Shown here: positions 21,609 to 45,007 of the stretch, piece by piece | How the letters are laid out: each line of letters begins with the position of its first letter | How positions within the stretch are numbered: the first letter of the stretch is position 1 | Source of the DNA: Elusimicrobiota bacterium | Lineage (GTDB): Bacteria; Elusimicrobiota; Elusimicrobia; F11 | NCBI GenBank assembly: GCA_044221725.1 | Contig: JBGAON010000001.1 | Location: 352,001 to 416,000, forward strand | DNA length: 64,000 bases | Reading direction: 5' to 3' | Translations under genes and position numbers: made by a program | Notes under the pieces: model-generated | What the model saw: the letters and a program-made list of their open reading frames with translations, nothing else | Databases searched by the model: none | Told to the model about the DNA's origin: nothing

Positions 21609-21610
21609 AT

Positions 21611-22528: not shown

Positions 22529-22529
22529 T

Positions 22530-23435: not shown

Positions 23436-23466
23436 GCCTTCGCCAATTGAATTACGCCACCAACCA

Positions 23467-25431: not shown

Positions 25432-25470
25432 CGGATTGGATGAATAGTCTTAACACGGAGGAGTGTTCAC

Positions 25471-26175: not shown

Positions 26176-26188
26176 ATCTTCGCTTTGC

Positions 26189-26226
26189 CCCGTTCCGTCG
26201 TTCGCCTTGGCGAGCGGCGGAACGGG
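26189..26226 (+). other. Strong intergenic RNA hairpin without U-tract
   Basis: CCCGTTCCGTCGTTCGC-cttg-GCGAGCGGCGGAACGGG, 17-bp stem with two G-U pairs. Confidence 0.7.
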
Positions 26227-26238
26227 ACGGAGATTTGA

Positions 26239-27390: not shown

Positions 27391-28055
27391 AAAACCGAAA
27401 CTTTTTCTTTTTGCTCGGAACGCTCGCTCTCGTGCCGGCCTGCGAGAAAAATCCTGTCGACAAACTGACGAATCCGTTGCCGAACGGTAGCGTTCCCCGA
27501 TCCAGCGGTATTTATCCGATTTATCATGACGAGCTGGAAACGGGGGGTGGGCTTGGATTCATTCCTGGTGGCGAAAACCAGGTGATCGATTTGTTTGATA
27601 ATTCGAGCCCCCGTCAGACCGCGCGTCAAATCCGCTACACATGGAATGGCGGCGATGTATCGGATGCGGAACACAGCACCACCGCGCACACGTTTGCCGG
27701 TTTTTCGTTGTTGGTGACGCCAAACTTCTCCACCCTTTCGGCGGCGCCGGCAAAAGATCTTTCCACGGCCGGATACACAAAACTTACGCTTCTTCTCCGC
27801 GGTTCGTTGTCCACCGGCACCAAGCTGCGCGTTGAGGGGCCCAGCGACGGAACGGCAACCCCTGCTCGACAAGAGTTGGATGCCGCGCAAATATCTCAAG
27901 CCTGGCAACTCGTGACGGTGGCCGTTCCGCCGTCTGATTTCTCCAATATCAAAACCTTCGCGACCATTTCGATTCAATACACGCAGCCGCCTCGCACGAC
28001 CAATCCAGGAGAAGGCGGAACAATTTACGTGACGCAGATTCAATATGAACGCTAG
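27387..28055 (+). CDS. Lipoprotein with CBM-like beta-sandwich
   Basis: Lipobox VPAC; DLSTAGYTKLT..LRG, WQLVTV, IYVTQIQY. Confidence 0.7.
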   Translation: MKNRNFFFLLGTLALVPACEKNPVDKLTNPLPNGSVPRSSGIYPIYHDELETGGGLGFIPGGENQVIDLFDNSSPRQTARQIRYTWNGGDVSDAEHSTTAHTFAGFSLLVTPNFSTLSAAPAKDLSTAGYTKLTLLLRGSLSTGTKLRVEGPSDGTATPARQELDAAQISQAWQLVTVAVPPSDFSNIKTFATISIQYTQPPRTTNPGEGGTIYVTQIQYER

Positions 28056-28629
28056 GGCCGCGCTGTCTTTTCTATTGGTGACCCAAATGGCGGTAGCGTC
28101 GTGGGCGGCGGATTCTTCAGCGAGCGCGGCGGCATCTTCCGAAAGAGGAAACTACATTGGCGAAGCGGCCGAGGCGACCGTGGGGCGCGTGTTTGGTGTT
28201 GAGGGAGACGCCGCCGAAATAAATTATCACGTGTTTGAACTCACCTCTCATTCTCCGGCGAACGCGGCCATTCGCTCCGGCATCATCCCGGGTTGGGGAC
28301 AGTATTTCAATAACGAGCGCGTGAAGGGTTCGGTTTTGTTCTTGGCCACATTGGGCGCGGTCGTCGCGAGCGTGCATCTTCACAATTCTGCCGAGAAATC
28401 TTACGACGATTACCAGGCGCTCGGACAGAAAGACAGTTCGTTGTACGATGATTACGAACGGGCGTACACCGGTTCCATCGTTCTTGGAAGCGCCGCTGCC
28501 GTTTTGTGGTTGGTTGGAATTTGGGACGCGCACCACAATGCGTATCATCCGCTCTATTCGAAAAATGTCACGGTGGATGTGGCGTACGCGGACAACACCT
28601 CTCAAATTCGCGTAAAGAAAAGTTTCTAG
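28045..28629 (+). CDS. DUF5683-like membrane protein
   Basis: AAIRSGIIPGWGQYFN motif, two hydrophobic helices, WDA. Confidence 0.6.
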   Translation: MNARAALSFLLVTQMAVASWAADSSASAAASSERGNYIGEAAEATVGRVFGVEGDAAEINYHVFELTSHSPANAAIRSGIIPGWGQYFNNERVKGSVLFLATLGAVVASVHLHNSAEKSYDDYQALGQKDSSLYDDYERAYTGSIVLGSAAAVLWLVGIWDAHHNAYHPLYSKNVTVDVAYADNTSQIRVKKSF

Positions 28630-28683
28630 AAAAATTTCTTGTGCGAGCGCACCTTGATTTAATATTTTGTGCGTGGAGAACCT

Positions 28684-29583
28684 ATGTTTTTACCCACTTT
28701 ATTCAACCGTTTGAATAAAATCTGGCCCTGCGCATTCGTGGCGGGCATGATCGCAACAACTCTTATGCTGCCTGGCTGCAAAAAGAAAGAACGGCTCACC
28801 GCTTCGACGTTTTCATTTTCGATTACGCCTCCCGCCTCCACTGTTTTGAAGACCGAATCGATCACGCTCATGGCAAAAGGTTCGTCGGCGAGCGGATCGG
28901 TGGACGTGAACCCCACGTGGAGCGTGTCGCCCACAACGCTGGGTTCTTTGAACACCACAATCGGACGCAGCGTCGTTTTTCAACCGACCGGTCTGGGAGA
29001 CGTGGTGGTCACCGGCGTGTATGACGGCATTGCGGCGACATCACAAATTGCGATTGTGACCTACAAGCCCACCGCAAACACATTTGATATTTATAACGAC
29101 AACGGACTTCCCGCCGGCAGCGACGTGGACAGCGATATTTTTACGTCGGGCGGGCTTTCTCTCACCGAGCTTTCGAGCGGGTACACACCGGAAGGTTCAA
29201 AGTACGAACACACCACCAATGCGATCACGAACAATTTTTGGGGCGTGACCGTTGATAAACTGAATACGGGGAAGCGAAAAGATCTTTCGGGATTTTCATC
29301 CGGCGCTCTGAAATTCTCGTTGCGCCTTGCGCGGTCGCTTTCCGTGACAGAAAGCATTCGAATCGATATTGTAGATTCGGCGCAAACGGTTTCGTACACG
29401 TTGAGCAGCGGTTCCGATAATTACAATCGACTGAGCACCGATTGGCAAGAAATTTCGTTGTCGTTGCCAGCACGATTTGCAACATTGGATAGCGCTCATG
29501 TAAAAGTACCGTTTGTAATTGTTCCGACGGCGCTGGGTGCGCCGTTGACCTTTGACGTTGATGCCGTTCGTTGGGAGCGGTAG
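28684..29583 (+). CDS. Lipoprotein with Ig-like and CBM-like domains
   Basis: Lipobox LPGC; Ig-like ITPP...PTWSV; PEG, FWG, DLSGFSSGALKF, WQEISL, DVDAVRW. Confidence 0.75.
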   Translation: MFLPTLFNRLNKIWPCAFVAGMIATTLMLPGCKKKERLTASTFSFSITPPASTVLKTESITLMAKGSSASGSVDVNPTWSVSPTTLGSLNTTIGRSVVFQPTGLGDVVVTGVYDGIAATSQIAIVTYKPTANTFDIYNDNGLPAGSDVDSDIFTSGGLSLTELSSGYTPEGSKYEHTTNAITNNFWGVTVDKLNTGKRKDLSGFSSGALKFSLRLARSLSVTESIRIDIVDSAQTVSYTLSSGSDNYNRLSTDWQEISLSLPARFATLDSAHVKVPFVIVPTALGAPLTFDVDAVRWER

Positions 29584-29624
29584 CCGGCGAAGAAAATTTT
29601 TTGATCGAATTAAAGCGCTTGAAT

Positions 29625-30902
29625 ATGAATGGACATCGGAGAACAACAGTTGATTTAAATTTTTGGGTGATGCCGAATGCGGGTATCGCCACGCGGCATA
29701 TTTTAAAAAGCTTTATCGATGAGTTTGAGCAGCTTCATCCGGAAGTTCGCGTCAATCTCGTAATCCACCCATGGTCGCTGGCGTGGAATCGGGTCATGGA
29801 TGTGGTGAAAGGACGCAACACGCGCAGTGTTCCCGACGTCATGCAAATTGGAACTACCTGGGTTACCACTCTTGGTTATCTGGGAGCGCTCGAAGAAGTC
29901 CCCGACGTTCCGTTCGGGCCACGGGATCAACGCATTGCCACATCCATCGGAGATTCAAGTGCGTTTTGTATTCCGTGGTTTATCGACATTCGGGTGCTGT
30001 ATTACCGAAAAGATATTTTTCAGGCGTTTCGAATTGACCCGGCACTTCTAAACGATTGGAAGGGGTTTGCGCGGGCGTGCGCGGAACTCAAAAAAAACCT
30101 TTCAAGCAAGTCCGGCAAATTCTCTCGGATCATTGCGCCCTTGGGGATTCCGGGGCAAAAGCCCGGCGTTTTGATGCACGACTTGGCCCCGTGGGTGTGG
30201 GAAGCGGGTGGCGACTTTTGCGCCGATGATTTGCGCGACACGAATTTAAATCAGGCGACGCTCATCGACGGATGCAAATTTTATTTTGACCTCATCGATC
30301 AAGGTTTTATGCCGGTGCCAAACAGCGCCTTGCCGGCCGGAAATTTTTTCACGGGACATTACGCCATGCAGTTTTCGGGCAGCTGGCCGATCGATTCTTA
30401 TTTGAATCCGACGTGGACCTACGCTGATCCCGACGTTGCAGCAAACGCCGGAGTGATGCCACTTCCCGAAGGACCTCAGGGGCGATACACGTTTTTGGGC
30501 GGCAGCAATTTGGCGGTACCGTCCTCGGCTCGGCATCGTGAAATCGCCTGGGAATTTGTGAATTTTCTTGTCGACCCTGTCCGGATCGTCAAGCATGCTC
30601 GGGGCATTGGTGCGTTACCCGCACGGCTGTCCGGTATGGAAAACTTGTTTGAACGGTTCCCGGCGGCCAAAGAAGTGTTTTTTAGTTCGTTCGGTTACGC
30701 GCGGCGTTTGCCCCGACTTGTGGAGCTCGGATCCATCGAGCAGATTATCTACAAGATGGGCGGTCGTTTGCTGTCCGCCGTTCGCGAAGGCTCTTACAAC
30801 CAGAAGCGACTCCAGCAAGAAATAAACACCGCGAACAATGAAATTCGCTCGTTGCTGTCGATACACCGGTATGGTACGCGAATTTCGCAGGTAACCGCAT
30901 GA
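29625..30902 (+). CDS. Family-1 sugar-binding-protein fold lacking a signal peptide
   Basis: FE..HP.V.V, PDVMQIGTTWV, PWFIDIRVLYYRKD, FLGGSNL; no hydrophobic h-region or lipobox from any in-frame start. Confidence 0.8.
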   Translation: MNGHRRTTVDLNFWVMPNAGIATRHILKSFIDEFEQLHPEVRVNLVIHPWSLAWNRVMDVVKGRNTRSVPDVMQIGTTWVTTLGYLGALEEVPDVPFGPRDQRIATSIGDSSAFCIPWFIDIRVLYYRKDIFQAFRIDPALLNDWKGFARACAELKKNLSSKSGKFSRIIAPLGIPGQKPGVLMHDLAPWVWEAGGDFCADDLRDTNLNQATLIDGCKFYFDLIDQGFMPVPNSALPAGNFFTGHYAMQFSGSWPIDSYLNPTWTYADPDVAANAGVMPLPEGPQGRYTFLGGSNLAVPSSARHREIAWEFVNFLVDPVRIVKHARGIGALPARLSGMENLFERFPAAKEVFFSSFGYARRLPRLVELGSIEQIIYKMGGRLLSAVREGSYNQKRLQQEINTANNEIRSLLSIHRYGTRISQVTA

Positions 30903-32461
30903 GCCAATTTCGTGCCCTCTTGGTATACGAAGAATTGTTGCGCTGTTTTCAGAACCACATGACGGCCTCGCACTTGGGAATGGAACAGGCCTTTGAGTCG
31001 GGTTTTGGCTATTTGGCTTCGCGTCTGCGCCTCGAGCATGTGAGTTTGTTTTGGTGGGACCCTCATCGGCACGCGTTTACCATGCAATATATTTTGCAAG
31101 ACGGCGCGCTCATGGAAGGCGAGGATGAGATCGTCGTTGATGAGACAAGCGCGCTGCGTCCGTTGATTCAAGAGCGACGTCCGGTCGTTGTTTCCGAAAA
31201 GAAACCGTGGGCTGCGTTTCTACCGCTACAAATTGGAACGGAATTGTTGGGGGCGGTTCGACTGCAGCGGGCGCATCCGTTACCGAAAGGAAAAGTTTTG
31301 CTTCCGCTTTCACCGCTTATTACTCCGCTCGGTTCCCGAGCGAACGGGAATGGCAAACACTCGACAAAAGATCGGCTCATGCCGTTTCTCGAAGACCTTG
31401 GCGACATATTCTCGATCCGATTTCATCAGTTGATTCGTGATGAAAAACACAAAAAGAAGGCCCAGGTTCTTCAAGCCAGCTCCGAAGTTGCGACCGCTGT
31501 TTTTGAGCGGCCGCGCTTGCGCGATATGTTGGAAGCGGTTTCCCGCAGCATTGTGCGAAATCTCGGGTTTGATCGCGTGCGCGTGTTTCTTGTGGACGTT
31601 GAGCAAACAAAACTCGAAGGAATTCTCGGACTGCAAATTCCCGACATGCTATTGGACATGACGGGCGAAAGTTATCCGCTGAGACCCAACACGAATTCGT
31701 TGGTTGACATGGTTCTCTCAGCAAAAGGGGCGTCGCACGTTCATCTCGTGGGGGGCCGTGTGGTTTACGTGCCGCTGATTGTGAATAGCCAAGTGATTGG
31801 TTGTTTGGCGGCCGATAACTTGCTCAGTCAGCAATTGATAGACGAGGAGCAAATGGAAGCGCTTCGCACACTTACCGGCCAGATAGGCATGGCCGTGTTG
31901 AACGCGCGACTCTTCGAAGACATTGAACAGCAAGCGATCACGGACGGATTAACAAAGCTTTATGTGCACCGGTACTTCCAGCAGCGTCTCAAGGAAGAGA
32001 TTGATCGCGCGGATCGCTACTCGTACAACATTGCTTTGATCATGATGGATGTCGATCACTTCAAGGCGCTGAACGACAGCCATGGGCATTTGATGGGCGA
32101 CAAGGCGCTCGAGTATTTGTCGCAAGTGATTCGAAGCAACATTCGCCGAATCGATTTGGCCGCTCGGTATGGCGGGGACGAGGTGGTGCTCGTTCTGCCG
32201 GAAATCACCGAACAGGAAGCGCTGCTGATGGGGGAGCGTTTGCTAAACGCAGTAAAAAAGGGAGTTCTTATTTCGTCGGATGGGGCGAAGGTGCAAATGT
32301 CGGTTAGCATGGGTGCGGCGCTTTATTCGACGGACGCCCGCAACGCCCGGGACCTCATTGATGCGGCGGACAAAGCCCTGTTTTGGTCGAAGAAAAATGG
32401 GCGCGGCAACATCTGTTTCTACCGAACGATCCCCGCGCCGACCGAAAAAACAACGGCTTAA
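30899..32461 (+). CDS. Cytoplasmic GAF-GAF-GGDEF diguanylate cyclase
   Basis: AITDGLT, MMDVDHFKALNDSHGHLMGD, RxxD I-site (RRID), RYGGDEV, ADKAL..SK..GR; ATGA overlap with upstream gene. Confidence 0.88.
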   Translation: MSQFRALLVYEELLRCFQNHMTASHLGMEQAFESGFGYLASRLRLEHVSLFWWDPHRHAFTMQYILQDGALMEGEDEIVVDETSALRPLIQERRPVVVSEKKPWAAFLPLQIGTELLGAVRLQRAHPLPKGKVLLPLSPLITPLGSRANGNGKHSTKDRLMPFLEDLGDIFSIRFHQLIRDEKHKKKAQVLQASSEVATAVFERPRLRDMLEAVSRSIVRNLGFDRVRVFLVDVEQTKLEGILGLQIPDMLLDMTGESYPLRPNTNSLVDMVLSAKGASHVHLVGGRVVYVPLIVNSQVIGCLAADNLLSQQLIDEEQMEALRTLTGQIGMAVLNARLFEDIEQQAITDGLTKLYVHRYFQQRLKEEIDRADRYSYNIALIMMDVDHFKALNDSHGHLMGDKALEYLSQVIRSNIRRIDLAARYGGDEVVLVLPEITEQEALLMGERLLNAVKKGVLISSDGAKVQMSVSMGAALYSTDARNARDLIDAADKALFWSKKNGRGNICFYRTIPAPTEKTTA

Positions 32462-32660: not shown

Positions 32661-33650
32661 ATGAGTTGGATTATGGGCATGAAACGCAACGGCGTGCATT
32701 TCTTGAAATTCCTTTTCCTCGGGCTGATGTTGAACGCGGGGATTTCGTGCACAGCATCCGCTGCTTTTCAAGAAGCTCTCTGGGGCGCTCGCCCCGCTTC
32801 TCTTGTTGGTGCCTACACCGCTCTTGCCGATGACTCAAATTCGCCCGCCTACAACCCCGCCGGAATCAGCATGCTCTCGCAGAATGAACTCACGTTTATG
32901 TACGCCCGGCTTTTCTCGGGTGTTAATTTTTATGCCGGGGAAGACACCTCGCGTTTGGGTCTCGGTTATTTCAGTTTCGCTCCAAACATTCGGGACAAGA
33001 AATACGGCAGTTACGCGATCAGTTGGAGCAATTTCGCCGCCACAAATCTTTACCGTGAAGACACTCTTACTTTTACCGCCGCCGATTCGTACCAGTTTGA
33101 ATCGGTAAATTCCAAACCGATTTTATCGTATGGCGCGAATTTGAAATTCTTGCGCCGTTCGTTTTCGACCGATCAACGCACGGACCAAGATCCCGTGTTC
33201 AAAAACGGGCGGGATTCAACAGGGGTAACACTTGATGCCGGTCTTCAATTGCGCCCGAACTGGAACGTTTTGCCCGGTTTGCGTTTCGGTTTAACCGGAC
33301 AAAATTTAACCGAACCCGACATTGGTTTGGCCGCTACCGATCGCGTCCCGCTCCGCGTGGCTTTTGGCGCCGCTTACCAAGATCCGAACCTTCCGCTTTT
33401 TGGCCCCGCTGTGGAAATTTCTCAGCGCTCGGGTCGCACGCTCGTTACGGGCGCCTGGGAAACGTGGGTCTCAAAAAACACGCTCGCGTTTCGCGCCGGT
33501 GCGAACGCCGATGAAATCGGCGGCGGCGTGGGATATCAATTTCGTCTGCTAAGCAAAATGATGATGCGTTTCGATTACGCGATTCTGTGGCCGCTGAACA
33601 TTGACGGCACCAACGGAAGTCATCGCGTGTCGATCTCAGCATCGTTTTGA
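32661..33650 (+). CDS. PorV/PorQ-like outer-membrane beta-barrel
   Basis: GARPASL.GAYTALADD..SPAYNPAG N-terminal motif; C-terminal FDYA...HRVSISASF; start may be 32679. Confidence 0.75.
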   Translation: MSWIMGMKRNGVHFLKFLFLGLMLNAGISCTASAAFQEALWGARPASLVGAYTALADDSNSPAYNPAGISMLSQNELTFMYARLFSGVNFYAGEDTSRLGLGYFSFAPNIRDKKYGSYAISWSNFAATNLYREDTLTFTAADSYQFESVNSKPILSYGANLKFLRRSFSTDQRTDQDPVFKNGRDSTGVTLDAGLQLRPNWNVLPGLRFGLTGQNLTEPDIGLAATDRVPLRVAFGAAYQDPNLPLFGPAVEISQRSGRTLVTGAWETWVSKNTLAFRAGANADEIGGGVGYQFRLLSKMMMRFDYAILWPLNIDGTNGSHRVSISASF

Positions 33651-33710: not shown

Positions 33711-34544
33711 ATGAAAAAGAAACTAGCAGTACTCGCGTTTGTCGCAACAGCGATCGGCGCATGGACGCCGTCGTGGGCGTTCCAGTTGGTTCAAATCGAA
33801 ACAGTAACCGCGACGGCGGTGACAGGAGGAGCGAAGGTTGCGCGGTTTAACTTCGTTATTCGTGACGCTGCGAACGTAAACGGCCCGAACCGTCCGAACC
33901 TCGGATGGTCCGGTGTTGATCCTCTGTCAACCCAATGGAAAATGTCAGATCAGGTTATCGTGATGGCTTCCACGGTTACCGACGCTGCCGGTGGTATTCA
34001 GATCCACACCGACAACACGGCGGCCGATGCATCGCCGAAGTTTGTTGATCCGACCCCGGGCAACCTCATTAATCCAGATTCGAACGCTGCCGGTTTGTTG
34101 CAGGGCACCTCGGGAGTAACGTCAACGGTTTTGCCGATGGCGTGGAGCATTAAGGACTCGTCGCGTACCGTTGAAAGTGGAACCGTCAATACCGGAATCG
34201 GCGCCGCCGATCCAAACAACGGCCCAATCACGGCGGTCTACAACACGAAGTATCAGTGGCTGTTCGTGACCGATAAATTCAACGTGCAAGGTATCGACTA
34301 CAGCGGTGATGGGCTCGTAACGCCTGGTCCAAATTCTCCGGACGCCGCTCCGTTCGTGAATGGCGCCAAGTACATCACGATGCGCAACTCGACCGGTATT
34401 CACTTCGGTCAAGCGGATGGTGAGTTTGCGTCGGTTCCTCAGGGACAAACGAACTATGTTTACTTCGAAGCCAACTTCTTGGGTTCGCAAGTGCAACAGA
34501 CGTATCAAACAACGACTCTGCGTCTGGAAGCCTTCATCCAATAA
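33711..34544 (+). CDS. Secreted beta-rich protein, putative major fibre/pilin subunit (WxL/pilin-like)
   Basis: AAAGGAG RBS, signal peptide ending SWA; body homologous to C-terminus of 36644-40621; final strand Y...LRLEAFIQ. Confidence 0.65.
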   Translation: MKKKLAVLAFVATAIGAWTPSWAFQLVQIETVTATAVTGGAKVARFNFVIRDAANVNGPNRPNLGWSGVDPLSTQWKMSDQVIVMASTVTDAAGGIQIHTDNTAADASPKFVDPTPGNLINPDSNAAGLLQGTSGVTSTVLPMAWSIKDSSRTVESGTVNTGIGAADPNNGPITAVYNTKYQWLFVTDKFNVQGIDYSGDGLVTPGPNSPDAAPFVNGAKYITMRNSTGIHFGQADGEFASVPQGQTNYVYFEANFLGSQVQQTYQTTTLRLEAFIQ

Positions 34545-34565
34545 CGATTGTTCGGAGTTTCGATC

Positions 34566-35363
34566 ATGATTAAAACGCCAGAGTGGTGGAACCGAAAGGT
34601 TCCGCCACTCGGCGGTTTTTTCACGTTGCTTCTTTTGGCGGGTGCGCCCCCTGCGGCGCGCGCGTTCGAAATTGCGCCGTCTTACCAGTTGTTAAAGGCG
34701 CAGCCCGGGAAATCCGTGGACTCGCAATTAACATTAACGAACACCGACCAGGAAGAAATCAGCGTTGAACCAGAAGCCAAGGATTGGCAATCGCTCGAGG
34801 TGAACCGTGGGATCAAGGTGGCTGATTGGTTGTCTGTGGATAAGAAAATGTTTTTCTTGAAGCCCGGCCAATCGCGAACCATTAAGTTCTCGGCGCGTGT
34901 GCCAAAAAATGCGCACGGCGAGCTTATGGGAATGCTTTCTTTTGCCACGAAAAAGGAATCGGCTCAATCCATCACGTTCAAACTGAGCTCAGCGGTTTAT
35001 GTCGAAGTGGTTGGTACACAAAAGATCGACGCGCACGTGGACGCTATTACGATTCAATTGTCATCAAACACGCAGGTGGGATTGCTTGTGATCAATCGAG
35101 GGAACATCCATGTTCGTCCTCACTCCTACGTTCAGATTCTCAACGAAAAAAAGAGCCCGGTAGGCAACGTGGTCATTGCGCAGAATGAGCCTGTTTTCCC
35201 CGGAATACCAAAGCCAATTTTCGGAACCATTAGAAATTTTCGTTTGCCCGCGGGGACGTACACCGCACAGATTTCGATGCAAGACACGGACCACAACATG
35301 GAATTTCAGCCCGTGACAAAAAAGTTTTCGCTTTCGGAGAAAGGGGAGTTGACCGAAAAATAG
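34566..35363 (+). CDS. Two-Ig-domain chaperone-like protein (PapD/DUF916-like)
   Basis: Signal peptide; FEIAPS...PG......LTN....., WLSV....F.LKPGQSR.I.F...VP, VINRGNIHVRP pattern. Confidence 0.65.
   Translation: MIKTPEWWNRKVPPLGGFFTLLLLAGAPPAARAFEIAPSYQLLKAQPGKSVDSQLTLTNTDQEEISVEPEAKDWQSLEVNRGIKVADWLSVDKKMFFLKPGQSRTIKFSARVPKNAHGELMGMLSFATKKESAQSITFKLSSAVYVEVVGTQKIDAHVDAITIQLSSNTQVGLLVINRGNIHVRPHSYVQILNEKKSPVGNVVIAQNEPVFPGIPKPIFGTIRNFRLPAGTYTAQISMQDTDHNMEFQPVTKKFSLSEKGELTEK
34576..34622 (+). terminator. Intrinsic terminator-like hairpin just after the putative major subunit gene, overlapping the start of the next ORF
   Basis: GAGTGGTGGAACC-GAAA-GGTTCCGCCACTC (13 bp, GNRA loop), extendable by CGCC/GGCG, followed by T7. 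Confidence 0.75.
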
Positions 35364-35369
35364 CTTTGT

Positions 35370-36644
35370 ATGAGAGACCGGAAACGTAAAAATAATTGGA
35401 GTGGCGGCTTCGCTCTGGTGCTTGGTTTGGCGCTGGCTGCTTTCTTGCGCCCTGTTTCTGCATTCCAGATTGTGCAGACCTCCAATGTTACGTGCCGCGT
35501 GGTGATTGGCGGAGTTCCTCCGGGCAAATTGAAGTTCCAGCATAATCCTCTTCAAAAGGTTTCCCCGGTGGACGATATGATCATTATCATGGGTCAGGCT
35601 GGTTCCGAAGTTTTACCGACCCAGCCCACGTACGAAGAGTCGCTTAAAACGAATTCGGATTTTGGGCCAGCAGAAGATCGGAAGATCCGCGTCGTTGTTC
35701 AATACCGATTTGTTCCCTCGCTCGATAATCAAGACTCCGTGCCGTTCGTAACGTCGAGCAATATCGAGGGTCCGGATCCTACACCGTTTGCTTTTCAAAT
35801 TGATCCGGCGTCCGTTCAACCCGGTTTCTTCCAATATCGGTTTGTCGCAACCGGATTGAATTTCGTGAACGGGCAGCTTGTCCCGATTTCACAAACAACC
35901 GGAGAATTGTTTACGGTTGGTGTGCAGGCCAACGCAAGCCAGGTTTTCGGCCCGGCGGGCGGCACGTTTATTCTTGCGAACGGAAACCAAGCAGTCGGCC
36001 AAACATCGTTGGCAATTCCTTCCGGTGTGTTTCGGCAGCCAACAACGGTTTCAATCGATGAGATTCCCTCGAATAGCCCCAGTGTTCCTGCTGGACTTAA
36101 CAATCCAATCAGCGTGTTTCATCTTGATTCCGACGGGCCGGCACGCGGAATTTTCCAGTTATCGCTTGTGTATCCGGACTTTGAATATCCGCGAGGTCGC
36201 GACGGGGTTGTTGATGGCACGAATATTCCGGTTCAAAACCTTTCAATCCAGTGGTGGGACGGGTTTGTGTGGCGCGGTGGCGGCGGGACAATCAACACAA
36301 AGACAAATACAATCTCGACGCGCATCAGCGCTTTGAGTTTCGTCGCAATAATGGCGGCGCCTGTGATGACGCCGGAGGATCGGCGACCGCTGGAACGCGT
36401 GATCACACCGAATAGCGACGGCATTAACGATGTGCTCAATTTTGCGTTTGGTGATTTGGCCGAAGATGTAAAAGTGGAGATTTTTGATGTCGGCGGTCAC
36501 CGCGTGCGAACGCTTCATAGTTTGACAAACATGCAATGGGATGGTCGCGATGATGACGGCAAAGTGGTGGAAAGCGGTGTTTACATTTATCAATACGACG
36601 TCAACAGCAAACGCATCAGCGGCGTCGTCGCGGTGGCGAAATAA
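35370..36644 (+). CDS. Secreted protein with ZU5-like region and C-terminal FlgD-Ig / T9SS-CTD-like domain
   Basis: Signal peptide ending VSA; GPAGGT...LAIPSG; ITPNSDGINDV, VEIFDVGG.RVRTL, WDGRDDDGKVVESGVYIY. Confidence 0.75.
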   Translation: MRDRKRKNNWSGGFALVLGLALAAFLRPVSAFQIVQTSNVTCRVVIGGVPPGKLKFQHNPLQKVSPVDDMIIIMGQAGSEVLPTQPTYEESLKTNSDFGPAEDRKIRVVVQYRFVPSLDNQDSVPFVTSSNIEGPDPTPFAFQIDPASVQPGFFQYRFVATGLNFVNGQLVPISQTTGELFTVGVQANASQVFGPAGGTFILANGNQAVGQTSLAIPSGVFRQPTTVSIDEIPSNSPSVPAGLNNPISVFHLDSDGPARGIFQLSLVYPDFEYPRGRDGVVDGTNIPVQNLSIQWWDGFVWRGGGGTINTKTNTISTRISALSFVAIMAAPVMTPEDRRPLERVITPNSDGINDVLNFAFGDLAEDVKVEIFDVGGHRVRTLHSLTNMQWDGRDDDGKVVESGVYIYQYDVNSKRISGVVAVAK

Positions 36645-39600
36645 TGGAAGCGAATAACTATTGTCGTCATTCCCGCGAAAGCGGGAATCTAGGTCTCAAG
36701 CAATTTTTTGAATTCAGGCTCAAAGCCTGGATTCCCGCTTTCGCGGGAATGACGTTATTGCTTTTGCCCGGACTGGTTCATTCCGAAGCGACGAAGGAAT
36801 ATACGCGCGACGCCGGAATTTATAGCGCGAACCCGTTCAGTATCTTCACGTTCTCGTTTAGCTCGATCAACGTTGATTTTGATTCCACGTCGGACCCGAA
36901 CCCGCCAGAGGGATTAAAAGTCGCGAGCACAACCGTCGCGACCCAATGGGGAGGATGGGGAATATTCAATACGACCGCGATGGGCAACAACGTCGTTACC
37001 GATTTGAATTTTTCGGACTATGTGAACGGGCATTTGCGATTCTGGTTAAAAAGCCAAATTGCGCTTGATGTAAAGATCGAATATCAGCAGGGGTCGAATG
37101 CCGTGCAAGTTTCCAGCAGCGTGGCCAGCACAGGCAACGCGTGGAAAGAAATTGTAATTCCATTGCAGTCGGGTGGCTTTGGTCTAAACAACGGTCAGAT
37201 GAACCGCATCCGTTCTCCATTTATTGTGGTGGCTCCGCAAACGACCGGCGTGCAAAAGCAATGGTTCATCGATCACGTGCGCTGGACAAAACCTGTCACG
37301 TCCATCGTTATGTATCCGCCGTCGACCACGGTTCAACAAGGTTTCCACCGCTTGTTTACCGCGGAAGGTCGCGATGCCGCGAACGAACGTGTCATTATTT
37401 ACCCCACGTTCAGTGTTTCTCCGACGGTCGGAACATTTACTCCGGCTGACCCGACTCCGGTCACAGCGTCACGCTTGAACGCGACCGGCGCGAGCGGCGT
37501 TGCAAACGCGGTTTTTTCACCGCTATCGGCGTCCTCCGTGGTCACCATTACCGGATCTCACATTAATGACGAGCTTGGGTTGCTTAGTGAAACAATCCCG
37601 TCGTCGTTGATCCTTAATACTGACAGCGAGTTGGATGTGTCCTCGGGCGGCGGCGGGACGGATCCGGTGTTATTGGATGAATCGAGCAGTGATGTACGGG
37701 AGGGCGTGCGCCGTTTTAAAACGACCATCAGCGCGCAGCCGGCGAATGGCTTTAGCGGGTGGTTTATTCAATGGAGTACGAACGCCGCGAACACGGTGAC
37801 ACGCGACATGAGCAATTATTACGACGGATCGTTGCGGTTCTGGTTCAAAGGTCCGGCCGCTCTACAAAACGTACTCCAGATTTCTGTTCGGTCCGGAAAT
37901 ACCGAAGCGGGCACCGAACTATCAAAAGTGAATCTCAAGAACTACGTGACGTTCGATGACACGTGGCGACCGGTTGTCATTCCCATTTCCGATTTCACTG
38001 GTGCGCGGCCCAAAGCCGATTTGTCGCGCATGAAAATATTGTTCGGAGCTTTTGCGGTCGGTGCCGTTGGAAGCGTACAAACGTTCTATATCGATAATCT
38101 TCGCTGGGACACAAATATTCCCGGCGCGCTGGCATCGCTCACGGTGTCGCCAGCATCGGTGACGGTTCCGCTTTCAGCGAAACGCCAATTCGTCGCCAAA
38201 GGCTTCGACGCGAACGGCGTGTCCGTTGACATCTTCCCAACATGGACAATCACCGGTGGCATCGGTTCGGTAAACCCATCGCAGGGGGCCATCACGCAAT
38301 TGACCGCCGCCAGCTCCGCGCAATCGGGAACTCTCAAAGCCAGTCAAGGAGCGGTATCAGCGACCGCGTCGGTAAACGTGGCCGATGTTCAATGGGTGCA
38401 GTCGTTCAACGTGTATTCGGACAATGGGTCTGGCGGATTTGTTGGAGTTGCTAAGGGAACGAACAACGGCACCGTGATGAATTTGAGCGAGCAAAATTTG
38501 GGCGCGGGCGTGGCGCCCGAAGGAAAATTTGTGCGCCAATCGAACTACACACTCGTTAACAATCCGAATCTTCAAGACGCGTTCGCGATTTGGTTCACCA
38601 ACGCGGACGCGGGCACCGGCTCGCGCTTCATGCATTACTTTGATACGGGCTATCTTTATTTTTGGGTACGCACGACTCAGGACCTACAAATCTCGATTCG
38701 CTCCGCCAACATAACAGCGGGGAACGAGCGTTCGAAATTTCGATTGAGTGAGCTTGGTGTTCCGCTCGACAACAATTGGCAGAAAGTGGTGATCGCGCTT
38801 GCCGATTTCAAGAACCGCGAACCGCTTTTGGATTTTGACCAGATTCAAACGTATTTCGCTATCGGCGCCGTGTCGTCGCAGATTGGGCCTGTTACGAACC
38901 AAACGTTTGACGTCGATGATGTGAAATGGCTCACGAACAATCCGGGCCAGCCCGACGACAACAAGATTTACATTGGTCTCAAAGAGAAACAGGCCGCGGG
39001 GGGGCTTGTGCGGTCGTTCGATACGTTGCTCGATGCGTACACCTACGATCAGGCGCTTGCCGCTATGAATTACACGTACCGAAAGGACGTGGCGTTATCC
39101 AAAAAAGTTTTTGACGTTTATAAATATGTCCATGATAATTACGGCGGTACCTTCAGCGGTTTTCACGAGGATTACAACATCAATTCGGCGGTGGGCGGGT
39201 ACACGGTGCTGAATAGCAGTCGCGTCGCCGGGCCAAACGCTTGGATTCTTCTCGCGATGATTCATTACCGGAATGTAACGGGTTCCACCGCGTACGACAC
39301 GGTGATTAACGACGTGGCGGCGTGGTTGCGCGGATTGCAGGGGGCTGACGGTGCTGTGCAGTTTGGGCGTGTAAATTCGACATTGATCACTCTTAAATCC
39401 ACCGAACACAATTTCGATGTGGTGGCCGCGTTTCGCGCGTACGCAAAAATGAGTGGCAACAGTGCGTACAACAGTTACGCGGACGCCGCGCGCAATTGGC
39501 TTCAGACACAAATGTACGTTCCCGCCCAGCAACGTTTTAACGTGGGCACGTACGCGAACGGAACCACAAACACGGATCGTGCGCTCGACGCTTATTCGTG

Positions 39601-40621
39601 GGCCCCTCTCGCCCTTTCCTCCTTCACGAACGTGTTGACGACCGCCGAGACCGATTTCAAGAACACAAAGGTGTGTGATTTGACGGGACTCAGTGTCACG
39701 GGATTTGATTTTTCGGGTCCACCCAACTTTGGCCCCGACTTGGACGCGGTGTGGTTGGAGGGAACAGGCCAAATGGCGCTTGCCTATTACCTTACCGACA
39801 ATCTCGCGAAAGGCGATTTTTACCTGCAAGAGCTCGATAAAGCGATCGTGAACACGTCCGCCAACGGCCAGGGCATGGCGTACGCGACGAACAACGGCAC
39901 CGCCTACGGTTTTAATATGAATTCGCTGAATCCAGCCATAAGTTCAATGGCGTGGTATCTGTTTGCAAAGCAGAAATTCAATCCGTTCAAGCCTTATCCG
40001 ATTTATGAGTTAAAAATCATGGACACGGCGTCCGGGACCGAACGTTCGTCGGTTGGCTTTACGGTTTCGGTTCCCGCGGCATGGGTGCGAGCGGATCAAT
40101 ACATCAAGCTCGATGTGCAACCGAATTCGGTCGATCCGTGGGGCTTGCAAATTTTGACGGATAACACGCAGCCAACCGTGGTTCCTCGTTTTGTTGATCC
40201 CACGCCGGGAACAACGTCCAATTCGGACTCGAATCCAGCGGGACTCCTTTTGGAATTGACCGGTCAAACAACAACGCCGTACCAAATCAACATGGCGTGG
40301 AGCGTCAAGGATACGAGCGCAACCGCCACCATGCCAATCGCAACCGATCCAAATTCCGGCGCGCCAAACTCCTTTCAGTGGATTTTTATGAAAGACCGCG
40401 CGACTCCAGACATTCCTTCAATGAACACGGTCGCGTTTGCGAACGGGCAAGATGATGTGATTGTTCGAAAAGCCGTGAGCGGAAGTCATACGTCCCAGGG
40501 ACCTGCCGGATACACCGCTTCCGTTTCGCCGGACTACTTATTTCTAGAAGCAAATTTTAATTCCGCTGCGGCCCAGGTCCGCTACTTAGCGCATATCACG
40601 TTCGAATTTTTCCTGCAATGA
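36644..40621 (+). CDS. Large secreted protein: 3 CBM-like domains + Ig-like domains + (alpha/alpha)6 glycosidase-like domain + C-terminal pilin-like domain
   Basis: Three repeats of Y..G.L.FW...W..(I/V)VIP...D.(V/L)(R/K)W; YDQALA, GPNAW, STEHNFD, DAYSW, VWLEGTGQM; last ~205 aa match 33711 protein. Confidence 0.8.
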   Translation: MEANNYCRHSRESGNLGLKQFFEFRLKAWIPAFAGMTLLLLPGLVHSEATKEYTRDAGIYSANPFSIFTFSFSSINVDFDSTSDPNPPEGLKVASTTVATQWGGWGIFNTTAMGNNVVTDLNFSDYVNGHLRFWLKSQIALDVKIEYQQGSNAVQVSSSVASTGNAWKEIVIPLQSGGFGLNNGQMNRIRSPFIVVAPQTTGVQKQWFIDHVRWTKPVTSIVMYPPSTTVQQGFHRLFTAEGRDAANERVIIYPTFSVSPTVGTFTPADPTPVTASRLNATGASGVANAVFSPLSASSVVTITGSHINDELGLLSETIPSSLILNTDSELDVSSGGGGTDPVLLDESSSDVREGVRRFKTTISAQPANGFSGWFIQWSTNAANTVTRDMSNYYDGSLRFWFKGPAALQNVLQISVRSGNTEAGTELSKVNLKNYVTFDDTWRPVVIPISDFTGARPKADLSRMKILFGAFAVGAVGSVQTFYIDNLRWDTNIPGALASLTVSPASVTVPLSAKRQFVAKGFDANGVSVDIFPTWTITGGIGSVNPSQGAITQLTAASSAQSGTLKASQGAVSATASVNVADVQWVQSFNVYSDNGSGGFVGVAKGTNNGTVMNLSEQNLGAGVAPEGKFVRQSNYTLVNNPNLQDAFAIWFTNADAGTGSRFMHYFDTGYLYFWVRTTQDLQISIRSANITAGNERSKFRLSELGVPLDNNWQKVVIALADFKNREPLLDFDQIQTYFAIGAVSSQIGPVTNQTFDVDDVKWLTNNPGQPDDNKIYIGLKEKQAAGGLVRSFDTLLDAYTYDQALAAMNYTYRKDVALSKKVFDVYKYVHDNYGGTFSGFHEDYNINSAVGGYTVLNSSRVAGPNAWILLAMIHYRNVTGSTAYDTVINDVAAWLRGLQGADGAVQFGRVNSTLITLKSTEHNFDVVAAFRAYAKMSGNSAYNSYADAARNWLQTQMYVPAQQRFNVGTYANGTTNTDRALDAYSWAPLALSSFTNVLTTAETDFKNTKVCDLTGLSVTGFDFSGPPNFGPDLDAVWLEGTGQMALAYYLTDNLAKGDFYLQELDKAIVNTSANGQGMAYATNNGTAYGFNMNSLNPAISSMAWYLFAKQKFNPFKPYPIYELKIMDTASGTERSSVGFTVSVPAAWVRADQYIKLDVQPNSVDPWGLQILTDNTQPTVVPRFVDPTPGTTSNSDSNPAGLLLELTGQTTTPYQINMAWSVKDTSATATMPIATDPNSGAPNSFQWIFMKDRATPDIPSMNTVAFANGQDDVIVRKAVSGSHTSQGPAGYTASVSPDYLFLEANFNSAAAQVRYLAHITFEFFLQ
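36665..36754. repeat. REP/RPE-type palindromic element inside a coding sequence
   Basis: Perfect 25-bp inverted arms CGTCATTCCCGCGAAAGCGGGAATC (36665-36689) and its reverse complement (36730-36754); each arm is itself a hairpin. Confidence 0.9.
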
Positions 40622-42798
40622 TTCTCGATCCGTCGCCGATTTCTGCGTCCGATCGAAAGTTAAAACATCCTTCCGCAGAAAAGAAATCGGGGCGGCGCGA
40701 AAAGGTCGGATTTGCGTTGCTGATCCTGTTGGCGTTTGTCGGGTCTTTCGGCATCTGGAGATGGGAGCCGAAATGGGCCAAGCCATCCGTCCCGCCCGTT
40801 GAAAAGCCGCTGGTACGGCTTCCCGTGCCAGACACCATCGATGAGCGCCACCGCGAACACATTAAAAACGTTTTGTCGGTGATCGAATCCAACATCAATC
40901 CCGAAACCTACCTCGCCTACAGTTTCAGTGGAGACAAAAGACTCGAGTATTGGAGCGTTGTCTACGACAATTGCATTCGCGCGATCGTTCACTTGCAAAC
41001 CGGACAGCCGGAGCTCGCCAAGAAAATAATCGACTACTTCATCGATAACACCGCGATCCAAAAAATCGGTTGGGTTCGGAAGAATCACCGGTTGGTGGCT
41101 CGGACGGGGTGGGTCATAAATATTGTCGATGCGTCGGAATCGCGTGCGGGCGGTCGTGGCATCGAACATATTGCGCATACCGGCCCCAACGCTTACCTCG
41201 GAATTGCAGCGCTCCATATTTTTGAAGTGACGGGGGAGCAAAAATATTTGCGGTTCGCCAAGAAACAGTGGGAATTATTAAAGGATTTGCAGAACGAAGA
41301 TCCGCAAGATCCGAATTTCGGCGGAATTCGTATGGGGCCCATGGGCAATCCCGCCAATCCACGCGAGCAGCGCTTGGATTTTAAACCATCGAATCCGTCG
41401 TTCTATGAGTTTTATAACGGTGAGCATGCGGCGGATTTTAAAGCGTTTTCCGAACTCCTTTCGGTTTACGATCTCGAAAATCAAGAACGCTATGAAAAAG
41501 CAGTGGATCTCATTGAGACGTGGGATCACCGAATTTACGATGCCGAAAAACATTTGTTTTATATCGGTACCACCGAAAAGAAATTTTTTGATCCAAACAT
41601 CGGGCAATGGATAAGCGTCGGGGTAATTCCGATGTATCCACTCGATACAAGCTCGTTAAAGATTTCCGCCTATGGAGTTGATGGATTGGAACAGTTTGAG
41701 AAGAACGCCGCGCAGAAAATTCGCAAAGCGATCGATGACAACTTCAAGGTGACCGTGAGGATCCCCGATGGCAGCGGAGGTTTCAAGTCCGTTTCCGGTT
41801 ATGACTTTGTTTGCAATTCGGACCGAGCGCGACTGATTCGCTTCGTTGAAATGGGACACTACGGCGACCGAAAAATAAACGAAGGCATCGGACGCGAACC
41901 GCTGCTCAGTGACGAATGGTCGAATTGGGTAGCGCTCGCCGATCTTCGACTCACCGCTGACTTTGAAAAGAAAAACGACAACCGAAAGGCCACGATGTAT
42001 TCAAACGCTTACTATGAAAACGCGCTCGTGAGCTCGATGAAAACGTCGATGTCGGTCGATGGGGGGCTTGCATATCCCTACGCGCAACCGCTGCCCGATT
42101 CGTTAAACAAGCCGGTCGGTTTCGGTTGGAACACACATCACGAGCCGTACGCGATCATTGGCGGTGCCGCGCGAATTCTGGGCATTTTGCGATTTGATCC
42201 GTTTCTCGCGCGTGGCGGGGATCGATCAACGACGGTCAATGTCGAGGTGAAGAAACTGGGCAGGCCCATCGGAGAAATGCGTGACAAGGCCGTACTTTAC
42301 ACCGAGGCCGAGCTGTATTTGCGCGATGCGTGGCGGGATTTGCGCGTGGCACAAATCAATGGACCGAAAGCGGAGTTGTACTGGAGCTGTGCTCGAGCCA
42401 CGTGTGAGAGGATGCTTCGTGAACACCAAGATTGGGTTGATGTGGCGATGTCGCAGAACAACAGTTTAAGACTCTCGCGGCAGCCATTTCCTCTCACGGG
42501 GGTTGCGAATTTGACGGAACGAGATTTGGAGCCGGTTTATCGAAAATATTGGGCGCTTTATCATATCGGCACCGCGGAATTTATTTTGGTCGTTGCCAAT
42601 GCGGGGCTGCGCGATATTTACCGCGAGCGCGGCGACGTTGGGCGTGCCGACGCATTGAATCTAAAAGCCATTGAAGCGGCAAAACGAATTAAAAAAGATT
42701 TTTGTTTTGCGCAGTCTTACGACGAGGGCGGTTGGTTATGGCAACCCGCGCAAGCCATTAACGAATACGTTGATCTCGCGGGGCCGATAAATCACTAA
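40618..42798 (+). CDS. Membrane-anchored (alpha/alpha)6 glycosidase-like protein with helical C-terminal domain
   Basis: N-terminal TM; YDNCIRA, TGPNAY, NGEHAAD, LDTSS, SDEW motifs colinear with those in the 36644 protein; YWAL..IGT...AQSYD.GGW.W.P tail. Confidence 0.65.
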   Translation: MILDPSPISASDRKLKHPSAEKKSGRREKVGFALLILLAFVGSFGIWRWEPKWAKPSVPPVEKPLVRLPVPDTIDERHREHIKNVLSVIESNINPETYLAYSFSGDKRLEYWSVVYDNCIRAIVHLQTGQPELAKKIIDYFIDNTAIQKIGWVRKNHRLVARTGWVINIVDASESRAGGRGIEHIAHTGPNAYLGIAALHIFEVTGEQKYLRFAKKQWELLKDLQNEDPQDPNFGGIRMGPMGNPANPREQRLDFKPSNPSFYEFYNGEHAADFKAFSELLSVYDLENQERYEKAVDLIETWDHRIYDAEKHLFYIGTTEKKFFDPNIGQWISVGVIPMYPLDTSSLKISAYGVDGLEQFEKNAAQKIRKAIDDNFKVTVRIPDGSGGFKSVSGYDFVCNSDRARLIRFVEMGHYGDRKINEGIGREPLLSDEWSNWVALADLRLTADFEKKNDNRKATMYSNAYYENALVSSMKTSMSVDGGLAYPYAQPLPDSLNKPVGFGWNTHHEPYAIIGGAARILGILRFDPFLARGGDRSTTVNVEVKKLGRPIGEMRDKAVLYTEAELYLRDAWRDLRVAQINGPKAELYWSCARATCERMLREHQDWVDVAMSQNNSLRLSRQPFPLTGVANLTERDLEPVYRKYWALYHIGTAEFILVVANAGLRDIYRERGDVGRADALNLKAIEAAKRIKKDFCFAQSYDEGGWLWQPAQAINEYVDLAGPINH

Positions 42799-44870
42799 TG
42801 CCCCGCTACTTCGGGTGGGGGAGCGGACGGAATTAATTTGTTCGCACGGCAGAACCAATAGACAAACAGAAAATCCGTCGATGGATAAATCTTCGCGCCG
42901 TCGCCTTTCAGGCGTCGCGGATTGCGTTGCCATAGGAAGGAATCTTTCGGTCGATGGGACACCGGAAGCGGTTCGCGAGAAAAGCCGCTCCATTCCCCGC
43001 CACCGATCGTGTCCGCCAGTTCACGATCGTGCGCATCCCAAAATTCTTTTCCATATCCGTGACGGTTTTCCGGGTAAAGTGAAAGATCGCGCAGCACCTG
43101 TTCCATGTCGCCCTGCTCCTTTTTGGACGCAAGGCAATTGAACGCCGTAACCATCGGATTGTCTTCGCCGCGGTACGAACTCCATTCCCGTTTCAGTAGG
43201 GAACGGTAACTCGCTTGAACCGTCGGATTTTTTTCCAACGAAATAAGATTCATGAGAGCCAGTGTTCCTAGGTAACCCCGGCGTTCCGAATTCGCGCGTG
43301 GATTGCCAGCGGTTAATTGCGTAAGTTCATCTTCAATCCCGTACCAATCGAGTGCCGTTTTCAGAAGTGCATCTTGCGAATAAAGATTCTCCCGATAGTA
43401 ATCGCGAAATGTCGATTTCTCCGTGATCTCGGCCGCGGTTTTCACAATGTGAAGCGAAATTAACGCGTTGGACGCCAATATTTTTAGATCGGAGAATTCT
43501 CGTAGGCGTTGACCATCCTCTTTTTTCGGAAACCGTTTTAAAAGTGTCGTCAGCATGTCCGCCAATTTGATTCCGGGATACTCTTTGTTTGTGTAGCGTT
43601 TGGGGAACAAGTCCTGACGATATTGTTCGCGCAGCACATCACGAACGCGCTCACCCAGCAGAAACACTCCGTTCATCGTAGGCAATGTCAATTCGAAACA
43701 CCGTTGCTCGTCTTCCGCTTCAAGCGCCTTAATCACTTCTTTCATTCCGGGCCATAGTTCGCCGAACGGTAGGTAGCGTCGCGACATTTTGAGATTCTTG
43801 ACGAACTGGTGAACGTCTTTTTTGTCGTCCAATAGTTTGCGAATGCCCGAGCGAATTTCCGACTCTGAAAGGTACGGCGTGAGACTGAACAATGTTTTGC
43901 TGCCGCTTTTTACGGCCAGATCATCACGCAAAAACTTCGTCGCGATACGGTCCACGTCATCTCTCATTTGCTTTTTTAGCGCGGGGTTCGTGATCCGCGG
44001 ATAGGCGACGGACATCGCGAGAAAGAACGAAGTGTAAACGTCCTTGCTTGGAATTTTTGAAAACGGGTTTCCATCGACGTCGACGTAACGTGTGATGATG
44101 GGTTCGTCAAATGTTCCTTTGATCGCGTTGTGCAAGGTCGCGAGCCCATTTTCGAGCGCCTGATAGGTAAGCGCATCGCCGGTGGCCGCGTACTTCCATG
44201 CGAGCGACGTGACATAGAATCCGGTGTAGGTGGTGGCGTCGCCTGTCTCATCGGGCGCTCCGTTCAACTCCCGGGAAACCACGAAGCCGTTTTCCAGATG
44301 ATCATGCGCCAGCTTGTCGGCAAGGCGCGTTGCCTTCTGTTCAATCGCTGTTAGGGATACCTCAGAAAACCGCTCAAATTGGATCGAACTGATTTCACCG
44401 TTCGCGAGCCCAATCCAGTACACACGCGGTTCGATTGTGTGTCGCTCCCGGCTTTCCATCGAAAACTCCAACCAGCGCGGCTCGTAGCGGTTGGGCCCCG
44501 AAAAATCTGCAATCTGGAGCTCGCGCTGCGCGATGAGTTTGTCGGTGGTTGTATCCCAGAGCTCAATTCGGAAAAGCCCGTAAGATGAAAACAATAATCC
44601 TTTCTTCGGATAATGACCGCGTCGCATTTCGAACGTGGCGCGATAGAGTCCGGGTTCCAGGAACAGCGGATCCTTAAGTCCCGAGATGGCGTAACCCGGA
44701 CGATCCCGCTTGTAGTCCAACTCCCATCCTCGAAATCCCGCTTTTCCGACGGAGTGGAGGGCTTCTGTTTTTACAACGATTTCTCGCACCATCGTGCGAG
44801 GAGGAGCGGTCACTTCGGCGGTCGCCGCGGCGGCCAGCAAAATTCCGACGAGAAAAGATGCTTTTTTCAT
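42795..44870 (-). CDS. Secreted hypothetical protein (N-terminal beta-sandwich + helical barrel, possibly glycoside hydrolase-like)
   Basis: Long ORF, signal peptide MKKASFLVGILLAAAATA; DATTYTG.Y....AWKYAATGD, SKD.Y, WQRNP, DFLFVYW. Confidence 0.65.
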   Translation of the reverse strand: MKKASFLVGILLAAAATAEVTAPPRTMVREIVVKTEALHSVGKAGFRGWELDYKRDRPGYAISGLKDPLFLEPGLYRATFEMRRGHYPKKGLLFSSYGLFRIELWDTTTDKLIAQRELQIADFSGPNRYEPRWLEFSMESRERHTIEPRVYWIGLANGEISSIQFERFSEVSLTAIEQKATRLADKLAHDHLENGFVVSRELNGAPDETGDATTYTGFYVTSLAWKYAATGDALTYQALENGLATLHNAIKGTFDEPIITRYVDVDGNPFSKIPSKDVYTSFFLAMSVAYPRITNPALKKQMRDDVDRIATKFLRDDLAVKSGSKTLFSLTPYLSESEIRSGIRKLLDDKKDVHQFVKNLKMSRRYLPFGELWPGMKEVIKALEAEDEQRCFELTLPTMNGVFLLGERVRDVLREQYRQDLFPKRYTNKEYPGIKLADMLTTLLKRFPKKEDGQRLREFSDLKILASNALISLHIVKTAAEITEKSTFRDYYRENLYSQDALLKTALDWYGIEDELTQLTAGNPRANSERRGYLGTLALMNLISLEKNPTVQASYRSLLKREWSSYRGEDNPMVTAFNCLASKKEQGDMEQVLRDLSLYPENRHGYGKEFWDAHDRELADTIGGGEWSGFSREPLPVSHRPKDSFLWQRNPRRLKGDGAKIYPSTDFLFVYWFCRANKLIPSAPPPEVAGH

Positions 44871-45007
44871 TTCCCTTGAGGGTATCCCCAAGAGTCTTCG
44901 TTTTCGAGTCGGTTGCCCGTCGAAAACGAGCCGAAAAGACTAAGTGTTGCTTTGCTCGGTCTTTGATAGCATTATCGCGGTCCAAAAAAACAAGATAGGG
45001 AGGATGT

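Follow-up and report, generated by a model that had tools for sequence, protein, structure and literature searches.

Among the closest described systems is the Elr/WxL pilus of Enterococcus faecalis, an assembly without an usher, reported to comprise a tip with a C-terminal acceptor domain and a variable payload, a shaft subunit with both donor and acceptor, a donor-only base (ElrB) and a two-domain chaperone (Sleutel et al., bioRxiv 10.64898/2026.10.17.759780). On the basis of Pfam cut-offs, the Elr system is reported to occur only in Bacillota (bioRxiv 10.64898/2026.10.17.759780). Usher-less strand exchange, with an acceptor-only tip and a base donating its N-terminal strand, is also described for the Pam pili of bacteria of the Candidate Phyla Radiation (CPR) (PMC13278184). 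Type-B tags of Bacteroidota each have a cognate barrel, by which the cargo is kept on the cell surface (PMC9143113; PMC12618676). The present analysis concerns a cassette of five genes on the same strand, in the order V, A, C, B, D (Table 1), located in a stretch of 64,000 nucleotides from an uncultured Elusimicrobiota bacterium (GenBank assembly GCA_044221725.1, contig JBGAON010000001.1, positions 352,001 to 416,000 of the forward strand; hereafter the window, whose numbering is used for coordinates). Two neighbouring secreted proteins encoded in it, A and B, have in common a short N-terminal beta-strand, which most likely joins subunits into a surface fibre. The feature is real and probably represents a variant of the strand-exchange pilus, known here from sequence and structural models.

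An earlier note on this DNA had reported that A and B, otherwise unrelated, begin with the same strand after signal cleavage, and the translation of 33780-33830 and 35463-35513 is exactly as given there. The two 17-mers are identical at 9 of 17 residues. The lack of any likeness beyond the strand is also borne out, since the only BLASTP match between A and B below E 1 is a single stretch at E 7e-4, with 12/29 identities. When the strand of A was compared with the 2,128,792 17-residue windows of the genome (from stop-to-stop frames of at least 80 residues), the strand of B was the top non-self match, with a score of 44 against 34 for the next, and no third carrier was found among these windows. 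In 58 relatives of A, Ala occupies position -1 in at least 90% and the Phe at +1 is invariant, from which cleavage of the signal peptide of A just before this Phe can be inferred.

A profile of the A domain matches in 73 of the 401 genomes of the phylum (55 of the 293 good ones), and the cassette recurs in 40 loci, with a variable gene order and with V in most of them. The strand-profile, co-variation and hairpin counts given here were taken from 40 loci of 38 genomes and not from all 73 carriers. The strand is kept in both the A and the B families, the opposite of an outcome that the earlier note had named as fatal to its proposal, namely orthologues that do not conserve the motif in both proteins. 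The literal pattern FQ(L/I)VQ...GG is indeed present in A and B here, but it is lineage-specific and not a family motif. In fact, the conserved core is T-hydrophobic-T-A-x-V-x-(F/V/L/T); position 3, Leu in A and Ile in B of this locus, is usually Ser in the family, and Gly at position 16 occurs in only 6 of 40 A strands. A small residue is found at position 11 in 39 of the 40, V or A at position 13, and F at position 15 in 18. The leading F or FQ alone is unspecific, as the barrel V and the chaperone C also start in this way, and the leading F of C is not conserved among its relatives. A profile built from the A strands, with the tested genome left out and a threshold of 8 bits, recognizes 19 of the 39 B proteins at their N-termini (in 17 the match is at the mature start and in two at an internal window) and none of the N-termini of C (0/34), V (0/35) or D (0/34). 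Moreover, a strand-like segment before the acceptor domain of D was found in 0/34 D proteins, three of these 34 rows being mis-anchored.

The strands of A and B also change together. From the 39 B proteins, five without an A in their loci, three from two near-duplicate genomes and one second B without an A of its own were dropped, and for one B, whose frame extends far upstream, the strand window was placed by hand. In the resulting 30 operons, the A-B strand score is 29.3 for cognate against 13.5 for non-cognate pairs, and the cognate A ranks first for 13 of the 30 B strands, the pair of this window included, and among the top three for 17. With permutation only within families (21 operons), p was 0.0002, which is the floor of 5,000 permutations, and this shuffling leaves kinship below the family level in place. 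The V, D and internal B segment controls gave p values of 0.055-0.52, and the excess in controls was at most 1-2 points. That the strands of two unrelated proteins track each other is most simply explained if both bind one site.

By sequence, three architectures are distinguished: acceptor only (D), donor plus acceptor (A), and donor only plus tag (B). The A domain is matched by 555 representatives, which carry no taxonomy. Among the best 150 of these, the match starts no earlier than profile position 37 in 34 of the 35 relatives of at least 360 residues, and in all 35 it stops at most 9 residues short of the C-terminus; in 96 of the 101 short ones it starts at profile position 20 or before. 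The D tips of the family range from about 370 to more than 1,300 residues. The reading of the strand as an assembly tag, putatively a donor strand, is supported by its conservation and co-variation, by the acceptor-only tail of D, by the free residues 24-43 of A and by the chaperone-fold gene lying between A and B. The earlier note was therefore sound as to the feature and its donor-strand guess, but it over-specified the motif and missed D, C, V and the tag of B. The common strand is very probably a donor strand.

From a structural perspective, the model of A (predicted local distance difference test, pLDDT, 90.9) shows a pilin-like domain whose N-terminal strand is left free: the first modelled strand starts at residue 44, and residues 24-43 are unpaired. 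No family for A was found in Pfam or NCBIfam, and A profiles searched by sequence against solved structures found nothing. The top Foldseek rows for A are TLP-1b, TasA and CfaB, all strand-exchange filaments, and the upper rows of the fold searches are rich in such subunits (TLP-1, TasA, CfaB/E, CS17 and CsuE; Z 4-6.6 overall). The model of C (pLDDT 91.7) finds its best Foldseek matches in WxLIP (9i1y/9i25, E 1.4e-10, TM 0.47), followed by RbmA, CEP192 and FimC-type chaperones (FimC and others at E ~1e-7; PapD-like TM 0.40-0.47). Against the WxLIP Pfam families (PF06030, PF11797), C scores 22 bits with a cut-off of 27.3, and weak matches occur in 5/30 and 1/30 members; no PapD Pfam match was found among the 30 members at E <=0.01. 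No C-terminal membrane helix was found on C; in an alignment of 30 C proteins the C-termini consist of strands and basic residues. As regards D, its CBM30-like modules and helical hydrolase-like domain, together with the sugar-transport genes found upstream of the cassette, suggest glycan capture, and the tip probably binds or cuts a glycan.

A hairpin with a 13-pair core stem (34581-34610) and a T-run lies just past the stop of A (z -5.84). In the family, a strong hairpin 3' of the gene, scored with 12 base shuffles per gene, is found for 27/40 A genes, against 6/33 for V, 2/32 for C, 2/35 for B and 1/34 for D; in the tandem locus L047 it stands after the second A only. Chaperone-usher pili provide a parallel, with a stem-loop 3' of the gene of the major subunit (papA). 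It is proposed that the hairpin gives an excess of A message, which fits A as the subunit made in excess. Four metatranscriptomes from one study gave short, low-depth contigs over 17-23 of 30 locus bins with no visible excess on A; such contigs cannot rank genes and may be DNA. A promoter scan returned three sites, fewer than chance. The hairpin is also read in frame as part of the signal-peptide region of C, an overlap that L032, L033 and L041 share.

A chaperone-assisted donor-strand-exchange fibre can be outlined from these parts. Signal peptides, read in the sequence of all of them, would direct every part to export by Sec. To judge by its fold, C would lend one of its strands, for which residues 137-148 are the candidate, to hold the acceptor domains while they are incomplete. 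D, with a groove and no strand, would start the fibre as its tip; A, with both, would polymerise from D; and B would insert the same strand into the last A. The fibre would end at B because B has no groove, and the need to fit one and the same groove would explain why the strands of A and B resemble each other and co-vary. By analogy, the type IX-like tag of B would bind the barrel V, so that the fibre is held at the outer membrane. This scheme as a whole, with D and A primed by C, polymerisation of A starting at D, and B ending the chain and docking on V, is considered probable, although binding and the polymer are read out of sequences and models.

As for the crossing of the outer membrane, no usher (PF00577) was found in this genome, which is 93.9% complete, or in any of the 73 carriers (0/73); two of the 401 genomes of the phylum have a match, and both are non-carriers. 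V reaches 38 bits on PorV_fam, with a cut-off of 90, and its orthologues also match PorP/SprF under the cut-off. The genome holds 25 PorV-family matches, and 10 of the 19 proteins with the tag type of B have a PorV-like gene at most 300 bp downstream. A SprA-like frame of 1,806 residues matches in three collinear stretches (E 2.9e-16; 57.6 bits with a cut-off of 200), and a SprA-like gene is present in 71 of the 73 carriers, a figure obtained from two tables compared by eye and with no enrichment test. Searches with PF14349 and GldM gave no match anywhere, controls included. Similar frames in 354 of the 401 genomes point to a phylum-wide type IX-like export system in Elusimicrobiota. The SprA-like frame, at G000:C4:344397-349814 (L079, L080), adjoins a PorV-like gene.

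Neither A nor D bears a secretion tag, and in both the groove requires the C-terminal strand. Since they are tag-less and no usher was found, the likeliest exit would be that of the finished periplasmic chain as one cargo through the SprA-like pore, with the tag of B leading; this is the weakest step and is put forward tentatively, at rather less than even chances. The complete diderm route is possible and somewhat doubtful: a soluble chaperone would build a WxL-type fibre in the periplasm, and the base tag would lead the shaft and the enzyme tip, both tag-less, out by a SprA-like pore and dock the chain on the barrel. If true, the donor strand would also lend a secretion tag to proteins without one.

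Several observations weigh against this reconstruction. Neither a polymer or fibre nor a cell has been observed. Scores under the curated cut-offs are obtained for V, for the SprA-like protein and for the tag of B (TIGR04131), a SprA-like gene occurs in 354 of the 401 genomes of the phylum, so that its presence says nothing specific, and three secretins in the genome offer other possible exits. As to the strand, 20 of the 39 B N-termini, mostly distant ones, fall below 8 bits, and 13 of the 30 cognate pairs rank below third. The C control has a small cognate excess (1.4-2.0 points, p 0.02), which indicates a little lineage bias, and the coupling evidence is thin, with the best register at 0.91, the second at 0.85, a spread of 0.29 and ~160 effective sequences. 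No fold match of A has E <0.001, the best having Z 6.6 and an rmsd (root-mean-square deviation) of 8.3, and N-terminal domains of glycoside hydrolases score equally (Z 5.0-6.0).

With the same strand chemistry, the product could also be short and fixed, an adaptor D-A-B, or D-B in which A is an optional spacer, linking a single enzyme to the barrel, as in the static-platform model, the earlier view of WxL clusters. All the sequence evidence for strand donation fits such a short chain equally well; the possession of both strand and groove by A, the strong hairpin after A genes alone, in 27/40 cases, which is expected of an excess subunit, and the two or three A genes in some loci make it unlikely. 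Alternatively, a strand-exchange fibre might stay in the periplasm, or its exit might be a different pore such as a secretin or some unrecognised barrel, V and the tag then acting only as a tether. The tag-less A and D, the usher searches, the partial SprA-like match under its cut-off, the uninformative GldM search and the secretins would all suit this; but tag/barrel pairs recur across the genome, and the Bacteroidota pairs hold cargo on the surface (PMC9143113; PMC12618676), and such a fate is judged quite improbable. It could finally be argued that the likeness of the strands has no binding role, being a relic of 5'-end copying between genes or a shared preference past the signal-peptidase site, as V and C also start with F and in 3/20 pairs the 45 bases ahead of the strand reach a DNA identity of 0.53-0.58. 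However, in the 20 best-matching pairs identical residues share the same codon in 64/172 cases, with 61.9 +- 6.0 expected; synonymous codons at chance mean that the likeness is kept at the protein level and not by recent DNA copying. Furthermore, the N-termini of V, C and D are off the profile, the co-variation extends across many families, and the strand is absent exactly where an acceptor-only tip is expected, all of which leaves this explanation very little room.

Table 1. Features of the cassette, with positions in the window.
Feature	Position	Strand	Remarks	Proposed role
V: PorV/PorP-like outer-membrane beta-barrel	32661..33650	+	UPF0164 E 4.7e-6, over cut-off; PorV_fam under cut-off	Anchor or shuttle for the C-terminal tag of B
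A: 277 residues; signal peptide 1-23, putative donor strand, acceptor domain	33711..34544	+		Major (shaft) subunit
Putative donor strand of A, mature residues 1-17	33780..33830	+	Without secondary structure in the monomer model	
Predicted acceptor domain of A (pilin-like, immunoglobulin (Ig)-type), residues 44-277, C-terminal strand at the end	33840..34541	+	pLDDT mostly >90	
Strong hairpin and T-run just past the stop of A	34576..34622	+	In frame within the signal-peptide region of C	
C: predicted two-Ig-domain soluble chaperone	34566..35363	+	Model pLDDT 91.7; Foldseek WxLIP; weak WxLIP Pfam matches	
B: 424 residues; putative donor strand, spacer domains, type IX-like C-terminal tag	35370..36644	+	No A-type acceptor domain	Base/terminator
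Putative donor strand of B, mature residues 1-17	35463..35513	+		
Type-B-like C-terminal domain of B	36396..36641	+	CHU_C E 5.5e-11, over cut-off; TIGR04131 33.7 bits, cut-off 35	
D: 1,325 residues; CBM30-like modules, unnamed helical glycoside-hydrolase-like domain, C-terminal acceptor domain	36644..40621	+	Without donor strand	Tip
Acceptor-only copy of the A domain, D residues 1121-1325	40004..40618	+	33% identity to A 46-277, E 4e-22	

Around the cassette (20313-32461 and 40618-44891) lie a sugar ABC transporter and a probable barrel of the outer membrane, along with several CBM-like proteins, one GAF-GGDEF protein and two proteins that match no family, and relatives of some of these genes recur beside the cassette in other genomes. 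A palindromic repeat lies at the 5' end of D (36666-36753), and contigs of other origin join at its edges. An open frame of 13,703 residues runs from 55277 past the end of the window (G000:C3:407277-448385) and carries a C-terminal tag of the type of B, and a frame of 18,016 residues is found on C2 of the same genome. In other loci, two successive D-B-V sets share a single A and a single C (L058, L064, L059), which suggests alternative tips and bases on one shaft, and in one case (L060:6240-7595) the D gene is broken by one TGA within the acceptor domain. The cassette at L077:751-6465 encodes a second small A-domain protein, a bare cap with a signal peptide and no donor strand, which the short strand-less representatives P0062, P0148 and P0193 resemble; its V is fused to an OmpA-like tail, and the Clostridia label of the record is not trusted because of the outer-membrane-type neighbours. 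A pattern search over 185,579 genomes returned eight loci, being insensitive and setting no bound on the range outside the phylum.

Compared with chaperone-usher pili (type 1, P, CFA/I, Csu), the locus shares a predicted soluble two-Ig chaperone (FimC and others, E ~1e-7) and weak pilin fold matches of A (CS17, Z 5.4, rmsd 4.0 over 116; CfaE/B, 5.3; CsuE, 5.1). It differs in having no usher in the locus, the genome or the 73 carriers, in the larger size of A, and in a base that is another protein with a secretion tag. The locus is thus not of the chaperone-usher kind. The Pam pili are set apart by a monoderm host, by chaperones and a base anchored by membrane helices, and by two-domain pilins with an internal linker strand. 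The TLP-1a/b pond fibrils and TasA (PMC11494351) have N-terminal strand exchange and a similar subunit size, and give the best fold rows of A (Z 6.6 and 6.3); with 6-11% identity, an rmsd of 7-8 and no sequence match, kinship with A is not established. With type IX secretion of Bacteroidota, the locus would share a tagged protein encoded together with a cognate surface barrel, B matching CHU_C and V the PorV/PorP families. There the cargo is a single chain, whereas here the host is an Elusimicrobiota bacterium, the scores are under the cut-offs, and the tagged protein is the proposed base of a multi-subunit chain.

Literature searches, with most subscription papers outside their reach, found nothing on Elusimicrobiota pili with a donor strand or on Elusimicrobiota with SprA/T9SS, and those combining donor strand, type IX secretion and pilus returned, by their listings, only reviews and type V fimbriae. 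If the reading is true, type IX-like parts would replace both usher and sortase, an arrangement on which the searches found no paper, and the question is raised of how a strand-exchange fibre crosses the outer membrane without an usher. Moreover, the lock-step change of the strands in unrelated proteins would provide natural orthogonal strand/groove pairs.

In plan, the cassette resembles the Elr system. There, as here, tip, shaft, base and chaperone divide the labour in the same way without an usher, the tip being acceptor-only, the shaft both and the base donor-only, and the core of A is similar to the consensus of the Elr strands, [S/T]-x-[G/A]-x-[V/I]-x-F. The best structural match of C is WxLIP, and the nearest named ESM cluster of A is WxL at 0.77, a lead only. 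The WxL domain (PF13731) was found in 0/58 and 0/48 members of A at E <=1 and nowhere in the genome, while the control matched; no WxL chain is among the listed fold-search rows of A, by which the WxL fold is not excluded. The host here is a diderm, B has a type IX-like tag beside a barrel gene and not LPxTG and a sortase, and C has no membrane helix and scores under the PF06030/PF11797 cut-offs. If true, the Elr/WxL pilus plan, reported as confined to Bacillota, would extend to a diderm phylum.

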